The position numbers and the translations under genes are program-made. Below, in pieces: positions 40,621 through 59,300 of a stretch of 64,000 bases of DNA. The notes beneath the pieces were generated by a model. That model was not told the origin of the DNA. It saw only the letters and a list, made by a program, of their open reading frames with translations, and searched no databases. Source of the DNA: Candidatus Hydrogenedens sp. (GTDB lineage: Bacteria > Hydrogenedentota > Hydrogenedentia > Hydrogenedentales > Hydrogenedentaceae); NCBI GenBank assembly GCA_049968235.1, contig JBMFRC010000003.1, positions 32,001-96,000 on the forward strand. The letters are read 5' to 3'. The stretch's first letter is position 1, and each line of letters starts with the position of its first letter.

Positions 40621-42987
40621 ATGTTTTTCCACCGTCATTGGGTAATTATCTGTGTAGGGTTTGTATGTGGTGCTTTCTTTGCCAAAATACAATGGATAAC
40701 ATGGGCGTTATTACCTGTTATTATCAGTATCATTGTCATTTTTCTTTTAATAAATTATCAGAAGAGAATACGATATGCAGAAAATATCGGGATTTTTCTG
40801 TTTTCCTTCATTATTGGTTCGTTATCTTATTTATTACACCCCTATCCTCAGGAAGGGGATGATTTTTTCGTATGGTTGAGACAGCAACAACCTAATATAT
40901 ATGTTGAAGTTGAAGGATATGTAACAGAAAATACGCTTTTTGACCCTATCAATAAACAAATTCGCTTTGTGATTAATATCTCAAAGGTAAAAGAAAAAAA
41001 TACATGGAAAAATATAAAGGGGAAAGCCCTTGTTTTATACAAAGATGCTCAATCTCCCATCTATACACATACCCGGCTTCGGTTATCCGGGAAAACTTCT
41101 CTATATTTAAGTCCAGTAAATGAAATATTAAGTGATTATGAAACCTATCTTCGTTCCCATAGAATTTATTCATTAATTTTTGTATATGCACCGCAAATAC
41201 AAACAATACATACTTACACATTTTCTCCATTTTATCACATATCCCGATTGCAACAATATTTTTATGAACGAATAATTCAATATACACCTACTTCCATCAG
41301 GGATATGACAAGAGCTATTTGGTTGGGAGACCGAAGTGGTCTGGATTATAAGGAAGAACAGAACTTTATGCTCACAGGAACCATACATATCATTGCTATT
41401 TCAGGACTGCATATCGGTCTGGTATTCTGGTTTACTCAGGTTGCGATACGGGCAATTTTCAAAACAAGGAGGCGATTGGCAGATATACCTGCCCTATTGT
41501 TATGTGTTTTTTATGCACTGATAAGTGGTGCTCATGGCTCTTCTTTGAGAGCAATCCTTATGCTGTTAATTTATGAGTTGTATGTGTTTAGTAGAAGAAA
41601 TGCGGATATTCTAACAACTCTTTCTATAACAGCAACACTACTTTTTCTCTGGAGCACAGATCTCATCTGGGATATAGGGACAGAAATGTCCATATTAGCA
41701 GTTGTTTCCATCATATTATTCAACGAACCCATCTCAAAACTATTACGCATCTTCCCATGGACAATCCGTTCCTATTTTTCGGCGATTATATCTGCACAGA
41801 TACTTTTACTGCCTTTACTTATTACAATAAACTCACAAATAAATGCTTTAAACCCTGTATATAATCTTTTTGTTGTTCCGTCAATTACACTTTATTTAAT
41901 GACCAGCATTTGTGGATTGGCTTTTATTTTTATTCCATTTTTACCGACTTTATTTTTCTACGCAAGTGGAGTATTTTTAATCTTCATTCAATCGTTATGT
42001 AAATGGGGTAGTTCTTTTTCCTATACTTTGTTTGCCATTCCCCATCTATCCTATTTCGGAATCTTCCTTTACTTTATCCTTTGCATGTTCCTTTATCGCT
42101 GGCTTATTAAACAAAAACGAAAAGAGTTTTTGATATTCATTGCAGGATGTGTCGTGTTATTCTTTTTCTGGAGGGGTATCCCGTTTTATAGAGAAACGAC
42201 TGTGCATATACTCGATGTAGGACATGGTGATGCTATACTTATCTCAACCGCAGAGAAAGAGAATATCCTTGTGGACGGGGGAACCCCATTTATGGGAGAA
42301 CGAGTTGTGCTTCCTTTTCTGTTTGCAAAAGGAATACGGACATTGGATTATGTCATCGCAACACATGCAGACGAAGACCATATAGGGGGGCTATTTAACG
42401 TTATAGACAAACTGCGTGTTCGACATTTTATTTATGGTGAAGGGTTTTTAAACACCGAACCCGGTAGTAAGATTATAAAAAAAGCCATGTCCCGCGGTAT
42501 TAACCTTATAAAAACTGAAAAAGGACAACAAATAAAATTGAGAAAGAGTTTTTTAAATGTTCTTTATGCGGGTAGAACTTACTACAATGAGACCAACGAA
42601 AATTCACTTGTCTTGAAATTTGTAAATTATCGTTTTTCCATATTGCTAACAGGGGATTTTCCTGCCCACTTGACAAATAAGGAACTTGCCTCTGCCGATT
42701 GTTCTACAACAATCATAAAAATAGCCCATCATGGTTTGAAGAATTCACTAAATCAGGATTTATTGGAGAAATCACACCCCGAGATTGCCGTTGTCTCTGT
42801 TAATGAATTCCAACGCAATTGGGGTGTGCGGAAGGAAATTAAAGACCTGCTACAACAATACCAAATTCCACTCTGGCGAACAGATTACTATGGAGGAATT
42901 ATTATACGAACGGATGGGAACAAAATAAATCTCTATGGGGCAAGACAGAAAAAAGGATACCTTCTCAGAAAAGAAACTTGTTTTTAA
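40621..42987 (+). CDS. comEC: DNA internalisation competence protein ComEC/Rec2 (with C-terminal metallo-beta-lactamase domain)
   Basis: Polytopic competence domain, then HILDVGHGDAILIS...ATHADEDHIGG MBL motifs. 788 aa. Confidence 0.8.
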   Translation: MFFHRHWVIICVGFVCGAFFAKIQWITWALLPVIISIIVIFLLINYQKRIRYAENIGIFLFSFIIGSLSYLLHPYPQEGDDFFVWLRQQQPNIYVEVEGYVTENTLFDPINKQIRFVINISKVKEKNTWKNIKGKALVLYKDAQSPIYTHTRLRLSGKTSLYLSPVNEILSDYETYLRSHRIYSLIFVYAPQIQTIHTYTFSPFYHISRLQQYFYERIIQYTPTSIRDMTRAIWLGDRSGLDYKEEQNFMLTGTIHIIAISGLHIGLVFWFTQVAIRAIFKTRRRLADIPALLLCVFYALISGAHGSSLRAILMLLIYELYVFSRRNADILTTLSITATLLFLWSTDLIWDIGTEMSILAVVSIILFNEPISKLLRIFPWTIRSYFSAIISAQILLLPLLITINSQINALNPVYNLFVVPSITLYLMTSICGLAFIFIPFLPTLFFYASGVFLIFIQSLCKWGSSFSYTLFAIPHLSYFGIFLYFILCMFLYRWLIKQKRKEFLIFIAGCVVLFFFWRGIPFYRETTVHILDVGHGDAILISTAEKENILVDGGTPFMGERVVLPFLFAKGIRTLDYVIATHADEDHIGGLFNVIDKLRVRHFIYGEGFLNTEPGSKIIKKAMSRGINLIKTEKGQQIKLRKSFLNVLYAGRTYYNETNENSLVLKFVNYRFSILLTGDFPAHLTNKELASADCSTTIIKIAHHGLKNSLNQDLLEKSHPEIAVVSVNEFQRNWGVRKEIKDLLQQYQIPLWRTDYYGGIIIRTDGNKINLYGARQKKGYLLRKETCF

Positions 42988-48190: not shown

Positions 48191-49882
48191 ATGAAGGATA
48201 CCTATGCCCTTGGACTGGATTATGGAACCAATTCGGTTCGTGCGTTGATTGTCAATGTTCATACGGGTGAAGAAATTGGGACCGCAGTTGTAAATTATAC
48301 CCACGGTGAACAGGGAATTATTCTAGCCTCGAAAGACCCTCATCTTGCCCGCCAGCATCCCAAAGATTACATTCAAGGGCTGGAACAGGTGGTAAAAGAT
48401 GCAATAGAAGATGCTAAAGCCAACAATCCCTATTTCAATGCAGAAAGTATAATCGGTATTGGTGTTGATACTACGGGTAGCACACCTTTACCTGTGGACC
48501 GCGAAGGCACACCGCTTGCTTTCCATGAAGAATTTGCCAACGACCCCAATGCAATGGCATGGCTCTGGAAAGACCATACCTCATATGCAGAAGCGGATGA
48601 AATCACACAGCAGGCAAAACAACAGAGACCCCATTTCCTTGCCAAATGTGGTGGGACATATTCCTCCGAATGGTTCTGGTCAAAATTACTTCACTGTCGG
48701 CGTATTGCCCCCAAAGTGTTCACATCCGCTTATACCTGGGTCGAATGTGCTGATTGGATACCTGCAGTGCTCACAGGAACGACCCATCCGGATAAAATTA
48801 AGCGATGTATTTGTGCCGGTGGGCATAAAGCTATGGCAAATCCCTCCTGGCATGGCTATCCCGATGAAACTTTTTTGGGCTTTCTTGACCCCGAATTAGC
48901 ACGAATTCGTCAGACCTTACCGGATATTTTATTCTGTGTAAAAGATAAAGCGGGAGATTTAACGCAGGAATGGGCAGAAAAATTATCTTTGCGTGCAGGT
49001 ATTCCTGTGGCAGTAGGTGCCTTTGATGCTCACTTAGGGGCAGTCGGTTGTGGAATAGCTCCCGGGGTGCTTACGAAAATTGTAGGCACATCCACCTGCG
49101 ATATGATGGTGGCACCTATGGACCAACCCCTGCCTGACATTCCCGGACTTTGCGGAATTGTTCCTGAATCTATTTTACCCGGCATGTTCGGATTGGAAGC
49201 GGGACAATCTGCCTTTGGGGATATTTATAACTGGTTTGTACAGTATATTCAACCCGGTGGTCCTGTCGAAGGGTCCCATGAAAAACTTACCGAAGAAGCA
49301 GAAAAATTAAAGCCCGGTGAAAGCGGATTGTTGGCATTGGACTGGCATAATGGGAACCGAACTATTCTTGTGGACCCGCAATTAACAGGAGCGGTCATCG
49401 GTTTAACACTTCTTACCAAACCTGCAGAAATATATCGTGCATGGATTGAAGCCACAGCCTTCGGGGCTCGTGTTATTATGGAACGTTTTGAAGAGTATGG
49501 CGTTAAAGCGGAACGCGTTATCAATTGTGGTGGTATCGCTATGAAGAATCCATTGGTAATGCAAATCCTTGCAGATGTTATGGGTAAAACAATGGAACTT
49601 TCTCGAAGTCAACAGACCTGTGCACTTGGCTCTGCTATATGTGGGTCTGTTGTTGCAGGTTCCGCAAACGGGGGACATACCGATTTTGCCTCCGCTATTA
49701 AAGCAATGACAGGTGTTCAATCCACAAAATATATACCCAATCCGAAAAATCAACAAATATATAACCAACTATACAAACTATACCGTCAGTTACATGATGC
49801 TTTTGGGACTAAAGAATATCAGGGCAACCTTGCCAATGTCATGAAAGAACTTCTGACCATTCGACGCAATATCAGCCAGTAA
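48191..49882 (+). CDS. araB: L-ribulokinase (FGGY family)
   Basis: The N-terminus is near-collinear with E. coli AraB (ALGLDYGTNSVRAL...GIGVDTTGSTP...ENPNAMAWLWKDHT). 563 aa. Confidence 0.8.
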   Translation: MKDTYALGLDYGTNSVRALIVNVHTGEEIGTAVVNYTHGEQGIILASKDPHLARQHPKDYIQGLEQVVKDAIEDAKANNPYFNAESIIGIGVDTTGSTPLPVDREGTPLAFHEEFANDPNAMAWLWKDHTSYAEADEITQQAKQQRPHFLAKCGGTYSSEWFWSKLLHCRRIAPKVFTSAYTWVECADWIPAVLTGTTHPDKIKRCICAGGHKAMANPSWHGYPDETFLGFLDPELARIRQTLPDILFCVKDKAGDLTQEWAEKLSLRAGIPVAVGAFDAHLGAVGCGIAPGVLTKIVGTSTCDMMVAPMDQPLPDIPGLCGIVPESILPGMFGLEAGQSAFGDIYNWFVQYIQPGGPVEGSHEKLTEEAEKLKPGESGLLALDWHNGNRTILVDPQLTGAVIGLTLLTKPAEIYRAWIEATAFGARVIMERFEEYGVKAERVINCGGIAMKNPLVMQILADVMGKTMELSRSQQTCALGSAICGSVVAGSANGGHTDFASAIKAMTGVQSTKYIPNPKNQQIYNQLYKLYRQLHDAFGTKEYQGNLANVMKELLTIRRNISQ

Positions 49883-49940: not shown

Positions 49941-51821
49941 ATGAGTCAAAATATCGAGGGCAATTTAAGTTCGCCAATGGGACAGGCTCTGGTAGACGAA
50001 GGTGTTATCACCGAGGAACAGTTAAGACGGGCTCTACGTATCCAGAGTTTACTGGAACAACCCAGACATCTTAGTGATGTTTTAATTGAATTAGGCTATG
50101 CTACCCGTCAGACAATTAATCAGGCGATTACAAAGCATGGGGGGAATCTTCGTTTAGGGGATTTGTTAATAGAACAAGGAATTATTACACCAGAGGTATT
50201 AAATTCCGCACTGGCTCTTCAAAAGGAACGCGGTATTCGACTTGGGGAGGCTCTTATTGAATTAGGGGCTATTAACGAACGCACATTACTTCGAAATTTG
50301 GCACATCAGATGAGTGTGCCTTTCATTGAACCGGAATTCCCTATGATTGACCCCCGTCTTTTGCAGGGCGTATCTCCGGCATATTTGCGAAAGTATAATT
50401 TTATCCCTTTCTCGAAGGAGGAAGATGGGAGTATTACCGTTGTAGTAAGCGATATTAACAATGACCAGGTTCGGCAGGCTATTCAAGATGTTTTTCAGGG
50501 ACAATTTAATGTGGCGTTAGGACCACAAGATGCTATTCAGGAGTCCATCCAGGCGTTTGAAGAATACCGACGACAGATAACACAGGCCCCTGGTACAGCA
50601 CATGCAGGAGAAGATAATATTATTCAATTGGTAGACCATCTTCTTATAACTGCCATTGAACGCCGTGCTAGTGATATTCATATTGAACCTATGGCGGACA
50701 AAATTAGAATACGCTATCGAATTGACGGCGTATTGGTATATCATACCGACCTACCCCTGACAATGCTACCGCGTCTTATATCCCGTATCAAAATTATGGC
50801 AGGCTGTAATATCACAGAACATCAACGACATCAAGGGGAACGTATTCTTTTTCCATATAAGGGGAAAGATATTGATTTGCGATTATCCATTTATGTTACG
50901 GTATATGGCGAATCCGCAGTTATGCGTGTTTTGAACAGAGATTTGGCTTTGGTAACTCTGGATGAATTGGGGATGAACCGTAGCATGTTGGAGCGTTATC
51001 GCTATGATGTTCTGGACTTGCCCACAGGGGTAGTGCTGATTACCGGACCTACCGGTTCAGGAAAAACGACAACATTATATGCCAGTATTGCCTATTCAAA
51101 TGATGTATCACGAAAAATTATCACTGCGGAAGACCCTGTTGAATTCACTATTGATGGAGTTGTGCAATGTTCCGTTAACGACAAGGTCAATCGCACTTTC
51201 GACTCTACCCTGCGTGAAATTGTGCGTCAGGACCCGGATATAATTGTTATCGGAGAAATCCGGGACCGTGAAACAGCCCAGGTAGCCATTCAGGCTGCAT
51301 TAACCGGGCATAAAGTATATTCGACATTCCATACAGAAGACACCATCGGTGGACTTCTACGTTTGATTGATATGGATATAGAAACTTTCCTCATTTCCTC
51401 AACTGTTATCTCGGTACTGGCTCAACGATTACTCCGTCGCATCTGTCCCAAATGCATTGTCCCTTATATCCCTACTGCAAGAGAGGCACAATCATTGGGA
51501 TTAGACTATGCCGAGGTGCGAGAATATGAATATAAGCGAGGAAAGGGCTGTCAGTATTGTTCATACACGGGTTACCGGGGAAGAGTAGGGGCTTATGAAT
51601 TGCTGGTCCTTAATGAAGATGTGAAGGAAGCAATTCTTCAGAAAAAGACCGCTCACGAAATACGACGAATTAGCGTAGATTCCACAGGACTTATTAGTAT
51701 GCGAGAAGATGCCATTTCAAAAGTCATTCGTGGCACTACTACATACGAAGAAGTCGTTAAACATACACCGCGAACCTTTAATCTGCGTTCCATACGGCAA
51801 ATTATGACTTTATGTTCATAA
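49941..51821 (+). CDS. GspE/PilB/MshE-family secretion ATPase with N-terminal MshEN (c-di-GMP-binding) domain
   Basis: Two 24-aa MshEN motifs RLGDLLIEQGIITPEVLNSALALQ and RLGEALIELGAINERTLLRNLAHQ separated by a 5-aa spacer. Walker A GPTGSGKTT. Tetracysteine CPKC...CQYC. Confidence 0.8.
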   Translation: MSQNIEGNLSSPMGQALVDEGVITEEQLRRALRIQSLLEQPRHLSDVLIELGYATRQTINQAITKHGGNLRLGDLLIEQGIITPEVLNSALALQKERGIRLGEALIELGAINERTLLRNLAHQMSVPFIEPEFPMIDPRLLQGVSPAYLRKYNFIPFSKEEDGSITVVVSDINNDQVRQAIQDVFQGQFNVALGPQDAIQESIQAFEEYRRQITQAPGTAHAGEDNIIQLVDHLLITAIERRASDIHIEPMADKIRIRYRIDGVLVYHTDLPLTMLPRLISRIKIMAGCNITEHQRHQGERILFPYKGKDIDLRLSIYVTVYGESAVMRVLNRDLALVTLDELGMNRSMLERYRYDVLDLPTGVVLITGPTGSGKTTTLYASIAYSNDVSRKIITAEDPVEFTIDGVVQCSVNDKVNRTFDSTLREIVRQDPDIIVIGEIRDRETAQVAIQAALTGHKVYSTFHTEDTIGGLLRLIDMDIETFLISSTVISVLAQRLLRRICPKCIVPYIPTAREAQSLGLDYAEVREYEYKRGKGCQYCSYTGYRGRVGAYELLVLNEDVKEAILQKKTAHEIRRISVDSTGLISMREDAISKVIRGTTTYEEVVKHTPRTFNLRSIRQIMTLCS

Positions 51822-51843: not shown

Positions 51844-52872
51844 ATGAATCTTACATGTCCATTTTGTCAGGCAGTTATATCTCCTCCCCAAAAAATGCGA
51901 AAGTGGTTTTTGTGGATTTGCAAAGAATGTAATAATCCTTTATGGATACAGGCACAAGGAACGAAAAACCTTGTTCAACCGTTTAGCAATTACACCGATG
52001 TTCGGTCGGTGCTACAACCCAACTCCATTGGAGCAAAAATTTTTGAACATCTGCCCGGGTATATCGAAAAGATACCTGTCATTCCTCGTATCGGACAGCG
52101 ATTGCTAAATACTATTCAAAAACCGGATGTCTCTTTTTCAGAATTGGTTTCCATTGTCCAGGAAGACCCTTCTTTATCCATGTCCATATTAAAAATGGCA
52201 AATAGTGCTTATTATGCAGGTTTGCAGGAAGTTAAAGATTTATTAACTGCCTGCTCACGCCTGGGCTTACAAACTTTAACGAACTTGGCACAGGTTTATG
52301 CAAGCCAGAAAGTATTTCAATCTTCAGACCCAAAATTAAATGCAGAGTTTCAGAAATTATGGAAACATTCCATTGCAACCGCTCATGCTTCGTATGAACT
52401 GGCGATTATTGTTGCAGAACCCCATCCGGAAGTTATGTTTCTCGCAGGTTTGCTTCATGATGTAGGGCATATTGTTCTACTTCAAATATTAAATGAGGTA
52501 AAATCATCTGCTTTTTCACAACTTATCGCCAGTCCTCAATTAACACAAGAGGTATTGATGCAATTTCATCCATTGGTGAGCCTTTTCGTCTTACAAAAAT
52601 GGGATATACCCGATGAATTTGCCGTTTTATCTTTTTCCCATCACGACCCATCACTTACACCTATGGAAGATTTACGAACACAAACACACATTCTCTGTCT
52701 ATCCAATTTAATTGTTTCAAGAGAAGGTTATAATTTCTTCCCCTTGACCGAAAATATTGTTTTCCTACAACATCCTTCCACACAATATTTAAATCTGAAT
52801 GATTTGAAAATTGCGACATTACGTGTGGACCTTGCAGACAAACTGGATGCTTATTTCTCCTCTATCGGGTAG
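51844..52872 (+). CDS. HDOD-domain signalling protein with N-terminal zinc-ribbon
   Basis: N-terminal CPFC...CKEC, then HDOD motifs (LAGLLHDVGHIVLLQ). Confidence 0.7.
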   Translation: MNLTCPFCQAVISPPQKMRKWFLWICKECNNPLWIQAQGTKNLVQPFSNYTDVRSVLQPNSIGAKIFEHLPGYIEKIPVIPRIGQRLLNTIQKPDVSFSELVSIVQEDPSLSMSILKMANSAYYAGLQEVKDLLTACSRLGLQTLTNLAQVYASQKVFQSSDPKLNAEFQKLWKHSIATAHASYELAIIVAEPHPEVMFLAGLLHDVGHIVLLQILNEVKSSAFSQLIASPQLTQEVLMQFHPLVSLFVLQKWDIPDEFAVLSFSHHDPSLTPMEDLRTQTHILCLSNLIVSREGYNFFPLTENIVFLQHPSTQYLNLNDLKIATLRVDLADKLDAYFSSIG

Positions 52873-52923: not shown

Positions 52924-54345
52924 TCAAAACACATGGATCCTTGGCTTTACCCGAATATGTGGAATTACCCTTTCATGTGTATCCATATACCACGCTAACA
53001 GTGCACATCGGTCTGCATCAATAATATGGTCATTCCCTTTCGAATACACATATTGCCCTTGAGCATTTAATACATAGGTGTGATTTGCATATTGTTGCTC
53101 CCGCTCTGCGCTTTTCGGAAATATAATTGTATGCTCCGCTAAACGCCGTTGTAGCAATTCCGTCATCCATTCTTTGGTTCGCCGTTTCTGAAGCACCCCA
53201 TTTGATAACTGCCCCGTTTCTATCATTCCTCCAAATTCGAACGCACAAACTCGATGTTCCCAATCCTTACCTGATGCCATTAATTGATGTGCCACCGCTC
53301 TACCACTATTCCCACAGTCAATCCCTATCTTACAAAAATGATAATGATTATCCAACTCTTGTATCGTCATCTGTTGCTGAACATAGTTTACATTCTCCAG
53401 ATGCATACGCAGTACACAAATCAAATACGGTGGTTCATTTTTAAAAACGATGAATTCAGAAGGGTCTCGCGAAAAGCCTAAATCACAGCCTAAATAATAC
53501 ATCCCCTTTTTTACAGGTTCCGGCAATTCCCATTTTATCTCTGACCCTTTAAGTCGAATCTCATTTGCCGGCAAACTATCATCAACGCAAAGGAGATAAT
53601 CGTCCAGATTAAACACCGCATTCATCGGTTCTCCATGCAATCCCAATACCCGATGTACATATCCTGGACTATCTCTCCCTCCGTACAACAAAGCCAGTTC
53701 AGCATCTTTCTCAGGGATAAAATCCGGATTAAGATAACTGGGCCAGTGATATTGTTCCGCCTCCGGTAAAAAAGTCATACGGTAAAATGTATTCCGAAGC
53801 CCATTCGGTACACCATAAACCCATCGTTTACCCCCACCTTTCAGGGATTGATACAATTCCCCCCAACTTGTTTCTGTCATTTCCTGTGCCTCATCTACAA
53901 TCTGCCAGTCCACATGCATCCCCTGAAAATTTATTCCACGCGGTCCTGCAATCCGACCCCATAGAGTAAATCCATTCACAAATCGTATGAAGTAGGAAGG
54001 GGAACGACGCAATTCTGCAATACCTCCTGCGAATTCCGTCGTTGTTTCAAAACGACGCACCAGTCGATTCATTACCGGGAACAAATGATTTTCACATTGT
54101 GTAGCAATTAACATGGATTTTCCCGGACAATTAACCATAGCCCAGCAGGCTATAATTTCTATTTCCGTCGTTTTCCCTACATCTCTTCCATCACAATGCA
54201 CCTTGCGTAATGCCTGTGATTCCAGAGAATTGCGTTGATAATTGCGAACTCGCCAATGCGTACCATCAACATTATGAAAGAAACGATATGCAAACAATTC
54301 CCGCCGTTGAAGTAACTGAATTAAAGTCTGTTTCAGAACGGACAC
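52924..54345 (-). CDS. Phage-type terminase large subunit homologue (orphan)
   Basis: Walker A GRDVGKTT and Walker B WQIVDEAQE. C-terminal RNase-H-like nuclease motifs (LGCDLGFSRDPSEF, IGIDCGNSG, HIIDADR), as in TerL. Confidence 0.6.
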   Translation of the reverse strand: MSVLKQTLIQLLQRRELFAYRFFHNVDGTHWRVRNYQRNSLESQALRKVHCDGRDVGKTTEIEIIACWAMVNCPGKSMLIATQCENHLFPVMNRLVRRFETTTEFAGGIAELRRSPSYFIRFVNGFTLWGRIAGPRGINFQGMHVDWQIVDEAQEMTETSWGELYQSLKGGGKRWVYGVPNGLRNTFYRMTFLPEAEQYHWPSYLNPDFIPEKDAELALLYGGRDSPGYVHRVLGLHGEPMNAVFNLDDYLLCVDDSLPANEIRLKGSEIKWELPEPVKKGMYYLGCDLGFSRDPSEFIVFKNEPPYLICVLRMHLENVNYVQQQMTIQELDNHYHFCKIGIDCGNSGRAVAHQLMASGKDWEHRVCAFEFGGMIETGQLSNGVLQKRRTKEWMTELLQRRLAEHTIIFPKSAEREQQYANHTYVLNAQGQYVYSKGNDHIIDADRCALLAWYMDTHERVIPHIRVKPRIHVF

Positions 54346-54392
54346 ACTACACTCCCCTGAATAAATAAAAATCAGAAATTAAAAAGACGCGA

Positions 54393-54896
54393 TTATTTTC
54401 CCGGTGGATACCACACCTTCACCTTTTTAGTTTGTCTTCCCCAACGCATTGCTTCTTTGTGTTTCTTAAAAAACAGGTCTATACTATTCCCTTTTACAGA
54501 ACCACCACGGTCTTCCACTCTGCCATAACCATAGCCCGGAATATACATAACCGTCCCAAAAGGGAAGCGACTTATATCGGCTGAAATGGTTCCCTTCTTT
54601 GCTTTAACACCACTGGCAGTCACACCTACTTTCTTGGGTTTCCCTTTATTAGGACCATGGGCAACTACCGGACGGAAATACCAATTCCTTTTCCAATTAC
54701 AGCATTTACCACATGGACAATACCCACGCGTTTCTAAAGTTAATATCTCGGAACGAGAACCCGCCTGAGGCTTAAATCGAGATGAAGTTGTAGCACAGCC
54801 CGCAGAAAAAAACAAGAATACTGTTAGCGTTAGTATCAAATATCGTCGAAGCATCTTTTCAATGTTCCTTATCCATTGTTTATTTACTTTAATCAT
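54393..54896 (-). CDS. 3D-domain (MltA-like) lipoprotein
   Basis: Lipobox FFSAGC. C-terminal GTVMYIPGYGYGRVEDRGGSVKGNSIDLFF fits the 3D-domain pattern. Confidence 0.6.
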   Translation of the reverse strand: MIKVNKQWIRNIEKMLRRYLILTLTVFLFFSAGCATTSSRFKPQAGSRSEILTLETRGYCPCGKCCNWKRNWYFRPVVAHGPNKGKPKKVGVTASGVKAKKGTISADISRFPFGTVMYIPGYGYGRVEDRGGSVKGNSIDLFFKKHKEAMRWGRQTKKVKVWYPPGK

Positions 54897-54929
54897 ATCC
54901 TTTACTATTCTATCAAATTTGTTGAATGA

Positions 54930-55433
54930 TTAATTATCTTGATTCACAAGAATTTCTTCTTTACTTCCCACGACTAAATTCTTTTGCATCGTTCCATTGC
55001 CTTTCTCCAATTCGTGCATACAACACACCAAATCCTGAACAAGTTCCGCAATACTCATAGAAGATGTTTTTGCTTCCACTGGCTTGATATTTTCAAATTC
55101 CTGCACCAACTTGCGTTGCCGTTCCATATATTTACATAAAATCTCATAATATTGTAAAGAATGGTTTGTCTTTTCTGTTTTTTTGGAAGATTCTATACAC
55201 ACATCTTCCTTTTTAGACATCAGTGGAGATAATAGGAATTCCTGTTCCAGCCTCTGGATAAAAAAAGTGAGTATAAGCAATTCTCGCAAACGCACTTGTA
55301 GCCAAGGTGATATTTCAATTCCATTATTCTGAAACCACACTTGCAGTGCTCTATATTTTTCTCGCCATTGCCGTTTTTCATATGGCGTTAGCCATGCTTC
55401 ACCTTTTTCAATAGAATAAAATATCGAGTCCAT
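54930..55433 (-). CDS. Hypothetical protein
   Basis: 167-aa ORF with no recognisable motifs. Co-oriented with the 3D-domain and terminase genes. Confidence 0.4.
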   Translation of the reverse strand: MDSIFYSIEKGEAWLTPYEKRQWREKYRALQVWFQNNGIEISPWLQVRLRELLILTFFIQRLEQEFLLSPLMSKKEDVCIESSKKTEKTNHSLQYYEILCKYMERQRKLVQEFENIKPVEAKTSSMSIAELVQDLVCCMHELEKGNGTMQKNLVVGSKEEILVNQDN

Positions 55434-55792
55434 AAAAATCTCCTATTATCTTTTATTGATATCTCTAAAAATATAGGAAAAAATTTTGCCCTGAAAAGCA
55501 GATAAACCTTTGACATATTTGAAGGAACACTTCCTTGCGATAAGTTATATATGATTTGCAGAAAAAGAATATAAGTCCAACACAATGATATTGAAATTCT
55601 ATTTATTTAGCATGCCAGCGGGATTATGAAACACGATATTTTAACATATATTAATATTATAATGTAATGTAATTGTATGCATACAAATATCACTCATTTA
55701 TAAAAAATAAATATCATATAATAAAGATAGAATAATTTGAATAACTTTACTTTTAATATGTATTTATTATTTAAATAATTATTAAAATTTAC

Positions 55793-55929: not shown

Positions 55930-56940
55930 ATGAGTAAAAAAGGATTCACACTCATCGAATTGCTGGTAGTCATAGCGATTATTGGCATTCTTGCGGCAAT
56001 TCTGTTGCCGGCACTTGCTCGTGCGAGGGAAGCAGCGCGTAGAAGTAGTTGTCAGAACAACCTTAAACAATGGGGACTGGTCTTCAAGATGTATTCCAAT
56101 GAATCGAAAGGAGAACGGTTCCCGCCGATATGTCTTACAGCAGACCAACGAATGAATTGTAATGTCTATCCGTTTACACTGGAAGGTTCCTATGGAATTA
56201 TTGCAGCTGGACCCAATCCGAAAGTCCTTTATCCGGAATATTTAACCGATTTAAATATTATATTCTGTCCTTCGGATTCGGCAGAGAAACCCGGACTTCA
56301 ATTTAATCCTGCAGCACAAGCGGCAGGTGTTGAACTGACAGATGTAAATATCCCGTGTAATGATGCAGTTCGTGGTATGTCTATAATAGATTCCAGTTAT
56401 AACTATGTGGGTTATGTTCTTGACCTCTGTAATGCGGATGGCACAGACCCGTTGACAGATATATCAGGATTGGCAACACTGGTAGGTGCTACAGGAGTTA
56501 CAGGAATGGGACCTGCGCAGTTGGTTGCAGCAATGCTGGTTGTATTACAGGCATACATTAACAACCCTGTAACTGGCGCCCAAAGGGCAGACGAGGACCT
56601 GGATGTAAGTTCATATGCAAATTTAGGAACACCTCCCGGACCTGTAGGTAATGGCAGACAAAATACGATATATCGGCTTCGTGAAGGTATTGAACGTTTC
56701 TTAATTACTGATATTAACAATCCTGCTGCTTCTGCCAAAGCCCAGAGTGAGACATGGATTATGGCGGATACAATCGCAACAGAAGTTGGACATTACAACC
56801 ATATTCCGGGTGGTTCAAATGTCCTCTACATGGATGGTCATGTTGAATTTATGCGTTATCAGGAAACAGGGGAACAGCCGGTTAATGGCGCGGTTGCTCG
56901 TGTCGTAGGACTGATACTAAATTCAGAGAATTTAATATAG
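55930..56940 (+). CDS. Type IV pilin-like protein with prepilin N-terminal cleavage/methylation domain plus DUF1559
   Basis: [47 protein letters not shown]... and C-terminal [21 protein letters not shown]. Confidence 0.85.
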
Positions 56941-59138: not shown

Positions 59139-59214
<76 letters not shown>

Positions 59215-59224
59215 TTTTTTTATA

Positions 59225-59300
59225 GGGCCGTTAGCTTAGCTGGTAGAGCAGGGGACTCTTAATCCCAAGGTCGCAGGTTCGATTCCTGCACGGCCCACCA
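59225..59300 (+). tRNA. tRNA-Lys (anticodon CTT)
   Basis: Acceptor GGGCCGT...ACGGCCC, anticodon loop CTCTTAA, T-arm GCAGGTTCGATTCCTGC, encoded CCA. Confidence 0.9.

Follow-up and report, generated by a model that had tools for sequence, protein, structure and literature searches.

Phage-derived particle systems of bacterial chromosomes

PBSX-like defective prophages are chromosomal elements whose non-replicating particles package host DNA, for which a terminase, a portal and a capsid are needed. The PBSX genes lie together in contiguous clusters of ~28 kb, which also encode contractile tails, repressors and lysis functions and occur in close relatives only. Independently domesticated families of gene transfer agents (GTAs) are, to our knowledge, only a handful, all of them from cultured organisms. 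GTAs, as viriforms, are described by caudovirus-like proteins, by endogenisation, often at multiple loci, and by a mostly vertical inheritance with co-diversification; further properties are the packaging of mostly random host DNA, a head too small for the gene set and delivery to cells (PMC9662315). In the present work, the gene of a phage-type large terminase subunit (TerL) and its neighbours were analysed in a stretch of 64,000 nucleotides from Candidatus Hydrogenedens sp. (phylum Hydrogenedentota; contig JBMFRC010000003.1, positions 32,001 to 96,000 of the forward strand), which is called the window hereafter and whose first letter is position 1.

Three co-directional genes on the minus strand of the window (55433-52924) probably form one operon that serves DNA packaging in a phage-derived particle system, which has become endogenised and is inherited vertically in most sampled Hydrogenedentota. 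This system is likely a GTA-like viriform candidate, undescribed so far and independently derived. The TerL gene was found to be intact, under strong selection, orthologous throughout the sampled phylum and resident in the chromosome, and a similarly conserved structural gene cluster co-occurs at a second locus in TerL-bearing genomes of relatives. The two loci would jointly build DNA-filled particles. A search of 8 million full texts yielded no paper linking Hydrogenedentes or Hydrogenedentota with terminases, GTAs, capsids, prophages or phage-like clusters.

Identification of the large terminase

An earlier sequence-only reading of this DNA had placed three open reading frames (ORFs) at 52924-54345, 54393-54896 and 54930-55433 on the minus strand, and they were recovered exactly there. 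The gaps between them are 33 bp (from the first gene of the operon, encoding a hypothetical protein, to that of a 3D-domain protein) and 47 bp (from the 3D-domain gene to TerL). The gene calls of two NCBI assemblies of Candidatus Hydrogenedens sp. agree on products of 167, 167 and 473 aa. The genes of the window are contained in GCA_049969095.1 and GCA_049971155.1. The motifs quoted in that reading for the 473-aa protein (52924-54345, minus strand) are all present in its translation, namely GRDVGKTT, WQIVDEAQE, LGCDLGFSRDPSEF, IGIDCGNSG and HIIDADR. Its assignment as a terminase was borne out by a match to the family PHROG_2, "terminase large subunit" (E = 3.2e-21, residues 34-465), and by the structural comparison described below, while the Pfam check itself gave no match. 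Neither Pfam (E ≤ 0.1) nor NCBIfam matched the protein, so that no curated terminase model recognises it, and PADLOC gave no match either. Because these three resources were silent, the identity of the protein was drawn from PHROG and from the fold. As PHROG_2 was the only family to match, the protein belongs to a divergent lineage of TerL that present curated families do not cover.

The structural model was computed with AlphaFold from 30 homologues. The model is of moderate confidence (pLDDT 72.6), with values above 85 in the nuclease domain and a poor region at residues 134-206. When the model was compared with the PDB by Foldseek, the top 50 matches were exclusively large terminases and both domains were covered; T4 gp17 was the best of them (E 8e-16), and D6E, HK97 and Sf6 were also found. 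The nuclease domain of the model was superimposed on the G20c TerL nuclease with a TM-score of 0.76. Weak phmmer matches were obtained to the P74-26 ATPase and to the G20c/P74-26 nuclease domains.

The N-terminal part corresponds to an ASCE ATPase, with a Walker A motif at G53-T59 and the Walker B/catalytic pair at D151-E152, and the C-terminal part to an RNase-H-like nuclease with D288, D343 and D443/D445. The segment GRDVGKT carries K58 and T59, IVDE carries D151 and E152, and both are invariant in 81/81 orthologues and align with the P74-26 ATPase. Residues K58, D151, E152, D288, D343, D443 and D445 were invariant in all 81 orthologues. As judged from these motifs and from the model, the 473-aa protein is a genuine and intact two-domain TerL, that is, a predicted packaging ATPase-nuclease. 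It shares the two-domain fold, the Walker A/B motifs and the acidic nuclease triad with the solved proteins (T4 gp17, D6E, HK97 gp2, P74-26/G20c and Sf6 gp2). It differs from them in that the identity in structural alignments is only 12-20% and in that the family of the window evolves at a host-gene-like rate within the phylum.

Residues 138-141 of TerL (NFQG, window 53922-53933) contain a Gln that is invariant (81/81) and that falls, in the weak phmmer alignment, on the arginine finger R139 of P74-26. The nearby R136 varies (R, H, G or N). Given the invariant Gln at the R139 position, the trans-acting arginine finger may sit elsewhere in this TerL family.

Conservation and chromosomal residence of TerL

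A search of 5.8 billion proteins with TerL returned 454 homologous 90%-clusters. Among the 120 clusters listed, the identity to the window TerL was 63-90% over nearly the full length, and almost all named entries belonged to Hydrogenedentes/Hydrogenedentota. Orthologues were present in at least 119 GTDB species-representative genomes. Outlier labels among the TerL loci were one Latescibacterota, one Armatimonadota, one member of the FCB group and several Nitrospir* or uncultured entries. Pairwise identity across 81 loci ranged from 55 to 97% (median 68%), and the mean column identity of a 30-sequence alignment was 71%. In an exhaustive profile search, the TerL family of the phylum corresponded approximately to a single 50%-identity cluster (635 bits), and more distant relatives formed a gradient. 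The closest TerL of an isolate phage, among 50,697 phage genomes, was only 24-26% identical, and IMG/VR contained a single relative, with 38% identity.

The ratio of nonsynonymous to synonymous substitution rates (dN/dS) of TerL was 0.02-0.13 in the twelve closest species pairs, and 0.05-0.06 when the window was compared with the related loci L002 and L003. The guanine plus cytosine (GC) content of TerL followed that of the flanking DNA (r = 0.93, n = 66) over a range of 37-71%. The gene order PilB-HDOD-TerL of the window is retained in L003 and L006. Identities between the window and L003 were 92% for PilB, 87% for HDOD, 85% for the 3D-domain protein, 83% for TerL and 65% for the hypothetical protein; the corresponding values for L006 were 83, 58, 80, 68 and 39%. 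The divergence between the window and these two loci is thus graded like that of resident genes. At 18 other loci, a host esterase gene adjoins TerL. The identities of the two proteins were correlated (r = 0.83, Mantel p = 0.001), TerL being the better conserved (69% vs 45%). In an integrated prophage or phage-inducible island, the structural genes would be expected to form one block with an integrase, att repeats and genes for replication or lysogeny. No such block was found: the Pfam hits recorded for the called genes of the inspected loci include no integrase or replication family, and att-like repeats are absent from the locus of the window.

Some more distant members of the family were also observed. 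The loci L085 (P0123) and L086 (P0134), with 40-46% identity, are "orphans" that lie behind small ORFs in a housekeeping context. One of the distant relatives is a second copy within the metagenome-assembled genome (MAG) of L020. The bin CALEZK01 (L057, L079) holds two members of the TerL family that are 64% identical, for which paralogy or a mixed bin is possible.

The portal-capsid cluster in relatives

TerL is followed by a portal cluster in L027 and in OY782877, a chromosome of 5.1 Mb (L001/L074), and in L038, L045, L050 and L181 the portal and capsid genes are found within 10 kb of TerL. In the 1.6-Mb contig CAXXTH010000017, TerL is located at ~0.29 Mb and the portal-capsid cluster at ~1.26 Mb, about 970 kb apart, and both loci are bordered by housekeeping genes (RuvA, URO-D). 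The same cluster of ~10 kb was found in further host contexts in L083 and L174. The portal homologues are as conserved as TerL, with 68-79% identity across the phylum (397 clusters). When metagenome contigs were scanned for the portal motif TETYGTAQFE, written as degenerate DNA, 87 further loci were detected; all of them have a GC content of at least 52%, and none belongs to the low-GC lineage of the window.

The cluster encodes a Mu-like portal (phrog_3753, 5e-46; Pfam Portal_Mu), a putative protease-like protein, g2 (phrog_16951), and, after a 60-aa protein, g5, which resembles LigD-type 3'-phosphoesterases (PDB 3p43/3p4h profile, E 1e-6) and lies at L083:13571-14263, L001:15737-16438 and L175:5022-5768. 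The motif H-x-D…H-x-D-x-R-x-E of g5 was invariant in 27 sequences, and its gene is located between those of the portal and the capsid. A small virion or structural protein (phrog_4588) and an HK97-type major capsid protein (phrog_3922, 2e-51; PF25209; TIGR01554) come next. The capsid gene is followed by that of a 138-aa protein and by g9, a Dit protein (PDB profile of SPP1 Dit, gp19.1, 8e-7). The hub-like protein g10, of ~580 aa (L083:16940-18676; L027:18635-20374), carries an internal staphylococcal-nuclease (SNase) domain (PDB profile, 5e-8) and a weak Phage-tail_3 match; it seems to be a tail hub that bears a nuclease. It is followed by a protein of 173 aa and by other small genes.

Two forms of the cluster were distinguished. 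The long form (L083, L082, L027, L174) includes g8, Dit, the hub and g11. Many of the 87 portal loci have a short form without g8-g11. In this form, seen in L164, L106, L155, L151, L110, L136, L176 and L175/L181, the capsid gene is followed directly by genes for proteins of 154/160 aa and 122/128 aa. Together with the ~2.5 kb of the terminase operon, the structural cluster, of ~7-11 kb, makes up the gene set.

Three observations on the cluster are added. A LigD-type phosphoesterase is an unusual enzyme within a phage head module. In the cluster of the 1.6-Mb contig, a DDE_Tnp_1 transposase gene (an insertion element) lies between the capsid gene and g8 (L082:15164-16255). The IMG/VR contigs L084 and L177, of ~40% GC, carry TerL (38% identity), portal (37%), g2 (29%) and capsid (29%), arranged in the ancestral order. 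Either a genuine related phage or a domesticated sister element of another low-GC lineage may be behind them.

The low-GC Candidatus Hydrogenedens lineage

The window falls in a low-GC clade (37-41%) together with L002-L007. This clade was missed by the portal pattern because its motif has two substitutions (GTVQYE), not because the portal is absent. The candidate P0312, taken as a low-GC portal from an amino-acid-composition screen of the listed portal hits, was discarded, its GC content being 52.6%.

The contig L175 (IMGVR_UViG_3300025589_000772, 41.9% GC) was found to contain the portal, g2, g4, g5, g6 and the capsid gene, with 42-61% identity. Exact sequence matching identified these genes as PLT82_11225 to PLT82_11200 of Candidatus Hydrogenedens sp. 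GCA_035406065.1, and the contig, listed as viral in IMG/VR, is 100% identical to the chromosomal segment DAONKH010000034.1 of this Hydrogenedens MAG. Caution is thus advised with catalogues of viral contigs, in which domesticated chromosomal segments such as L175 are labelled as viruses. The TerL of GCA_035406065.1 (P0005, PLT82_11150) is 77-78% identical to that of the window, and its hypothetical protein is PLT82_11160. The capsid cluster PLT82_11225-11200 is located 9 kb upstream of the operon of hypothetical protein, 3D-domain protein and TerL (PLT82_11160-11150). In the locus L181, the following order was observed on one strand: capsid, 154-aa protein, 128-aa protein, rplJ, rplL, glycosyltransferase, 805-aa PASTA protein, 134-aa protein, hypothetical protein, 3D-domain protein and TerL. 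The ribosomal protein genes rplJ-rplL, at L181:1997-2988 in GCA_035406065.1, therefore stand between the capsid cluster and the terminase operon, and a genus-level relative of the window keeps the head cluster 9 kb from this operon. An ORF-poor region of 2.7 kb upstream of the L175 portal gave no match in an Rfam scan.

At the matching position of the window, a pilin-like gene, transketolase, tRNA genes and ExbBD are found, and a tblastn search with the portal, capsid and tail proteins of the relatives gave no match across the 64 kb. In the genome of the window, the head cluster would thus be separated further from the terminase operon and would have to sit outside the 64 kb.

Other genes and control region of the terminase operon

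The operon was surveyed by all-against-all clustering of ORFs over 81 loci, 70 of which have at least 1.5 kb of upstream sequence. TerL has two recurrent neighbours alone, a protein of 155-180 aa and a 3D-domain protein. The gene of the former is located upstream of TerL on the same strand, either directly or with only the 3D gene intervening, in 52 of the 70 loci, and it frequently abuts or overlaps TerL. The 3D-domain gene lies between or beside the other two, usually between them, in 33/70 loci.

In the window, the first of these neighbours is the 167-aa protein encoded at 54930-55433 (minus strand; annotated ACP5UA_03120). A small terminase (TerS) would be expected to have ~100-200 aa and to be encoded just ahead of TerL in the same direction, with a helical or coiled-coil core for oligomerisation and a conserved C-terminal segment that binds TerL. 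Such proteins have been described as small, near-entirely helical proteins, and RcGTA gp1 is hard to spot by sequence (PMC6854486). The 167-aa protein is termed a TerS candidate because its position, size, helical build and conserved C-terminus fit this description. Its AlphaFold model is all-helical, with five helices (pLDDT 69). The protein evolves fast, with a median identity of 34% and a variable N-terminal part, and it is best conserved in the C-terminal third, where the consensus of the relatives is GKARERLRKAMKELE…GLAD…KPLLKK.EGVLEDAL. When the model was compared with the PDB by Foldseek, the HK97 small terminase (6z6e/8pop) was on top without reaching significance (E ~1.2, probability 0.33). 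A 22-sequence profile retrieved only designed helical proteins from the PDB, none significantly. No Pfam or NCBIfam match was obtained, and no PHROG match was consistent among all members scanned.

The middle gene (54393-54896, minus strand) encodes a predicted peptidoglycan lytic transglycosylase of 167 aa with a 3D (MltA/YuiC-like) domain. It matches Pfam 3D (PF06725) with E 7.7e-14 and 52.1 bits (cut-off 23.8), the phage family phrog_22529 with E 4.4e-22, and an SpsC-like NCBIfam model with 7e-21, which is under the cut-off. Its identity between loci is 59-87%. A lipoprotein-type signal, a hydrophobic stretch followed by Cys (…FFSAGC in the window), is present; signal and Cys were judged by eye to be conserved in the homologues, and a strict regular expression caught some sequences only. 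The lipoprotein probably remodels the cell wall, or lyses it, on behalf of the particle system.

Immediately 5' of the operon, at 55463-55512 (minus strand), an element with the layout CAAAGGTT…N…GGGCAAAA…N…ATTTTTAGAG was found, which is a candidate promoter or operator. It is conserved in the window and in its four closest relatives (L002-L005), and the remaining AT-rich intergenic DNA could not be aligned. A sigma-70-like pair of hexamers, TTTTCA-16-TATATT, overlaps the element at 55497-55470 on the minus strand.

Comparison with known systems and proposed function

The gene set resembles RcGTA-type GTAs in several respects. Both have phage-derived TerL, portal and HK97-type capsid proteins and a TerS, which in Hydrogenedentota is a candidate, and Dit and hub are found in many Hydrogenedentota lineages; both show no integrase or replication genes (for Hydrogenedentota, among the Pfam hits recorded at the inspected loci), occupy more than one chromosomal locus, are under purifying selection in a large clade and have an ameliorated composition. 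The small helical TerS-like protein is as hard to recognise as RcGTA gp1 (PMC6854486). There are also differences. The Hydrogenedentota TerL has no Pfam terminase match and the portal is Mu-like, so the origin looks independent; TerL is usually apart from the head genes, whereas g1-g15 of RcGTA lie together; and the terminase operon includes a 3D lipoprotein, while the structural cluster has a protein like LigD phosphoesterases and an SNase domain in its hub. Moreover, neither a tube nor a tape measure was recognised, the host phylum is an uncultured candidate phylum and the system is so far a set of genes.

With PBSX, the Hydrogenedentota genes have in common that they are chromosomal and phage-derived and include terminase, portal and capsid. 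They are, however, split, conserved phylum-wide and devoid of a recognised sheath or tube. Capsid-forming satellites of the cf-PICI type likewise combine a few head genes with packaging genes and have no complete phage genome; unlike the genes described here, for which none of these features was seen and inheritance is probably vertical, such satellites are mobile, with integrase, att and replication genes, and patchily distributed.

Of the six properties of GTAs given at the outset, caudovirus-like proteins and endogenisation at multiple loci were found. Vertical inheritance is supported, although not rigorously, by synteny, by the GC correlation (r = 0.93), by the esterase comparison (r = 0.83) and by dN/dS values of at most 0.13. 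Packaging, head capacity and delivery lie beyond sequence data.

A mode of action can be proposed for this system. Under host control, the capsid cluster would build proheads that contain the portal, and the TerS candidate would recruit TerL to chromosomal DNA. TerL would then cut the DNA and pump it into the heads by a headful-type mechanism, and the exported 3D lytic transglycosylase may help to breach or remodel the peptidoglycan for release, or for entry. The resulting particles would carry host DNA in a GTA-like manner. More tentatively, Hydrogenedentota as a whole may depend on a head-packaging machine, captured long ago, that would be more than a passive GTA: under host control it would export, import or repair DNA of the chromosome and thereby represent a viriform class with a new function. 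The ~68% identity, which exceeds that of neighbouring host enzymes, the interleaving with rplJ-rplL, the LigD-type and SNase enzymes and the exported lytic transglycosylase are the points behind this idea.

If the GTA-like reading is true, a new and independent GTA family extends across a whole uncultured candidate phylum, one often present in sediments and anaerobic digesters. The architecture of the system is uncommon, with a split terminase operon in which a cell-wall hydrolase is embedded and with DNA-end enzymes inside the head/tail cluster. It provides concrete genes to seek in particle-fraction metagenomes and a test case for the turning of phage motors into host genes.

Several points weigh against this reading. 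All functional steps are inferred, the system being known here from genes alone. For the genome of the window itself, 64 kb were covered, and the structural cluster was seen in relatives only. The TerS assignment is based on position, size and helical architecture, with fold and profile searches that were not significant. Tail tube and tape measure were recognised in none of the inspected clusters, so that the delivery apparatus is uncertain, and many lineages, including the Hydrogenedens relative, have the short cluster without Dit and hub. The co-divergence of TerL and portal is weakly supported in an underpowered Mantel test (r = 0.75, p = 0.024, 9 genomes) and disappears when a single low-GC genome is left out. 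The 119 genomes are a count of carriers only. The head of a GTA would have to be too small for the ~13 kb of genes.

Alternative explanations

A domesticated particle with another selected role, such as that of a PBSX-like killer or defective-phage particle, a programmed release of DNA or a defence that interferes with incoming phages, was kept as the main rival because no tube or tape measure was recognised and because tail-less variants exist, including that of the Hydrogenedens lineage. The evidence for domestication fits such a particle equally well, transfer is a prediction from the genes, the cluster contains unusual DNA-end enzymes (the LigD-like g5 and the SNase domain of g10), and its short variants have no tail genes. 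Nevertheless, this explanation is considered rather unlikely, as neither toxin or immunity modules nor genes for a contractile tail of sheath type were recognised in the cluster, and as known GTAs are similar in that both activities of TerL have been retained, apparently by vertical descent, across the phylum (PMC9662315). It is considerably less probable still that TerL was exapted independently of any capsid in the low-GC lineage, as a DNA translocase-nuclease acting with the PilB, HDOD and pilin-like genes or in competence. In the window, L003 and L006 the operon does adjoin PilB-HDOD and a DUF1559 pilin-like gene, ComEC is 10 kb away and no structural gene is present within the window. Against this stand the portal, capsid and accessory genes that the genus-level relative retains 9 kb from the operon, the lack of PilB adjacency at most other loci and the occurrence of DUF1559 genes irrespective of context (L085).

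The sequence-only reading had offered three interpretations of an orphan terminase: a prophage relic, a domesticated terminase of GTA-like type with portal and capsid acting in trans, and a misread P-loop nuclease of another kind. A decayed remnant under neutral drift would account for the local isolation of TerL from other phage genes, but the relic is refuted by dN/dS values of 0.02-0.13, by catalytic residues kept in 81/81 orthologues and by phylum-wide orthology; the fully ameliorated GC content and a gene whose length and operon are the same across at least 119 species argue in the same direction, so that hardly any credence is left for it. It is just as improbable that the operon belongs to a phage-inducible island or an intact prophage that continues immediately beyond the neighbourhood. 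The homologous region L175 was indeed called viral by the IMG/VR pipeline, but it is a chromosomal MAG segment with ribosomal protein genes between the modules. Moreover, housekeeping genes extend over 52 kb on one side of the operon of the window and 9.6 kb on the other without att repeats, the two modules can be ~970 kb apart on one contig, and integrase and replication families are missing from the recorded Pfam hits. The misread nuclease, another P-loop ATPase-nuclease such as a defence protein, has the silence of the Pfam and NCBIfam terminase models in its favour; the PHROG_2 match (3e-21), the structural matches, of which the top 50 were all TerL, the absence of a PADLOC match and the linkage to portal and capsid in relatives make its probability almost negligible. 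The domesticated, GTA-like terminase is the interpretation that the data favour, as a conserved portal-capsid cluster is found elsewhere in the same genomes, including that of the genus-level relative.

Neighbourhood of the operon in the window

The operon is flanked by PilB (49941-51821) and HDOD (51844-52872) on one side and by a DUF1559 pilin-like gene (55930-56940) on the other. The identities given earlier to the neighbours (PilB, HDOD, 3D, hypothetical and pilin-like) were correct. PilB and HDOD, which had been called upstream, are located downstream in the orientation of TerL. The flanking genes had been described as not phage-like, which is only partly right: it is valid for the housekeeping flanks but not for the 3D-domain protein, which matches phrog_22529. 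Both this protein and that of 167 aa share conserved synteny with TerL across the phylum. The reported absence of portal, capsid, integrase and att near TerL was confirmed over the 64 kb, and the term orphan holds for the window only.

Among the larger ORFs of the window, which extends 52 kb to one side of the operon and 9.6 kb to the other, 36 were scanned with Pfam. They gave housekeeping families or no match, and no head, tail or integrase family was found. Among the housekeeping genes are hrcA-grpE-dnaK-dnaJ, cydAB, ComEC, PilB, transketolase and ExbBD. Around the locus, att-like repeats were limited to short matches at chance level. The segment of tRNA-Gly at 59161-59179, in the anticodon region, was compared with 49821-49839 as a possible att pair and rejected: 17/19 positions match at a distance of 9.3 kb, the interval encloses PilB, transketolase and core genes, and ~0.3 matches of this kind are expected by chance according to our estimate.

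The uptake of RcGTA needs competence proteins. A gene for a ComEC/Rec2 competence channel with Competence and Lactamase_B domains is located at 40621-42987, ~10 kb from the operon, and no conserved linkage between ComEC and the operon was seen. Genes for tRNA-Gly(GCC) and tRNA-Lys(CTT) are found at 59139-59300, 3.7 kb from the operon. DUF1559 pilin-like genes recur near TerL loci whatever their context, as in L085.

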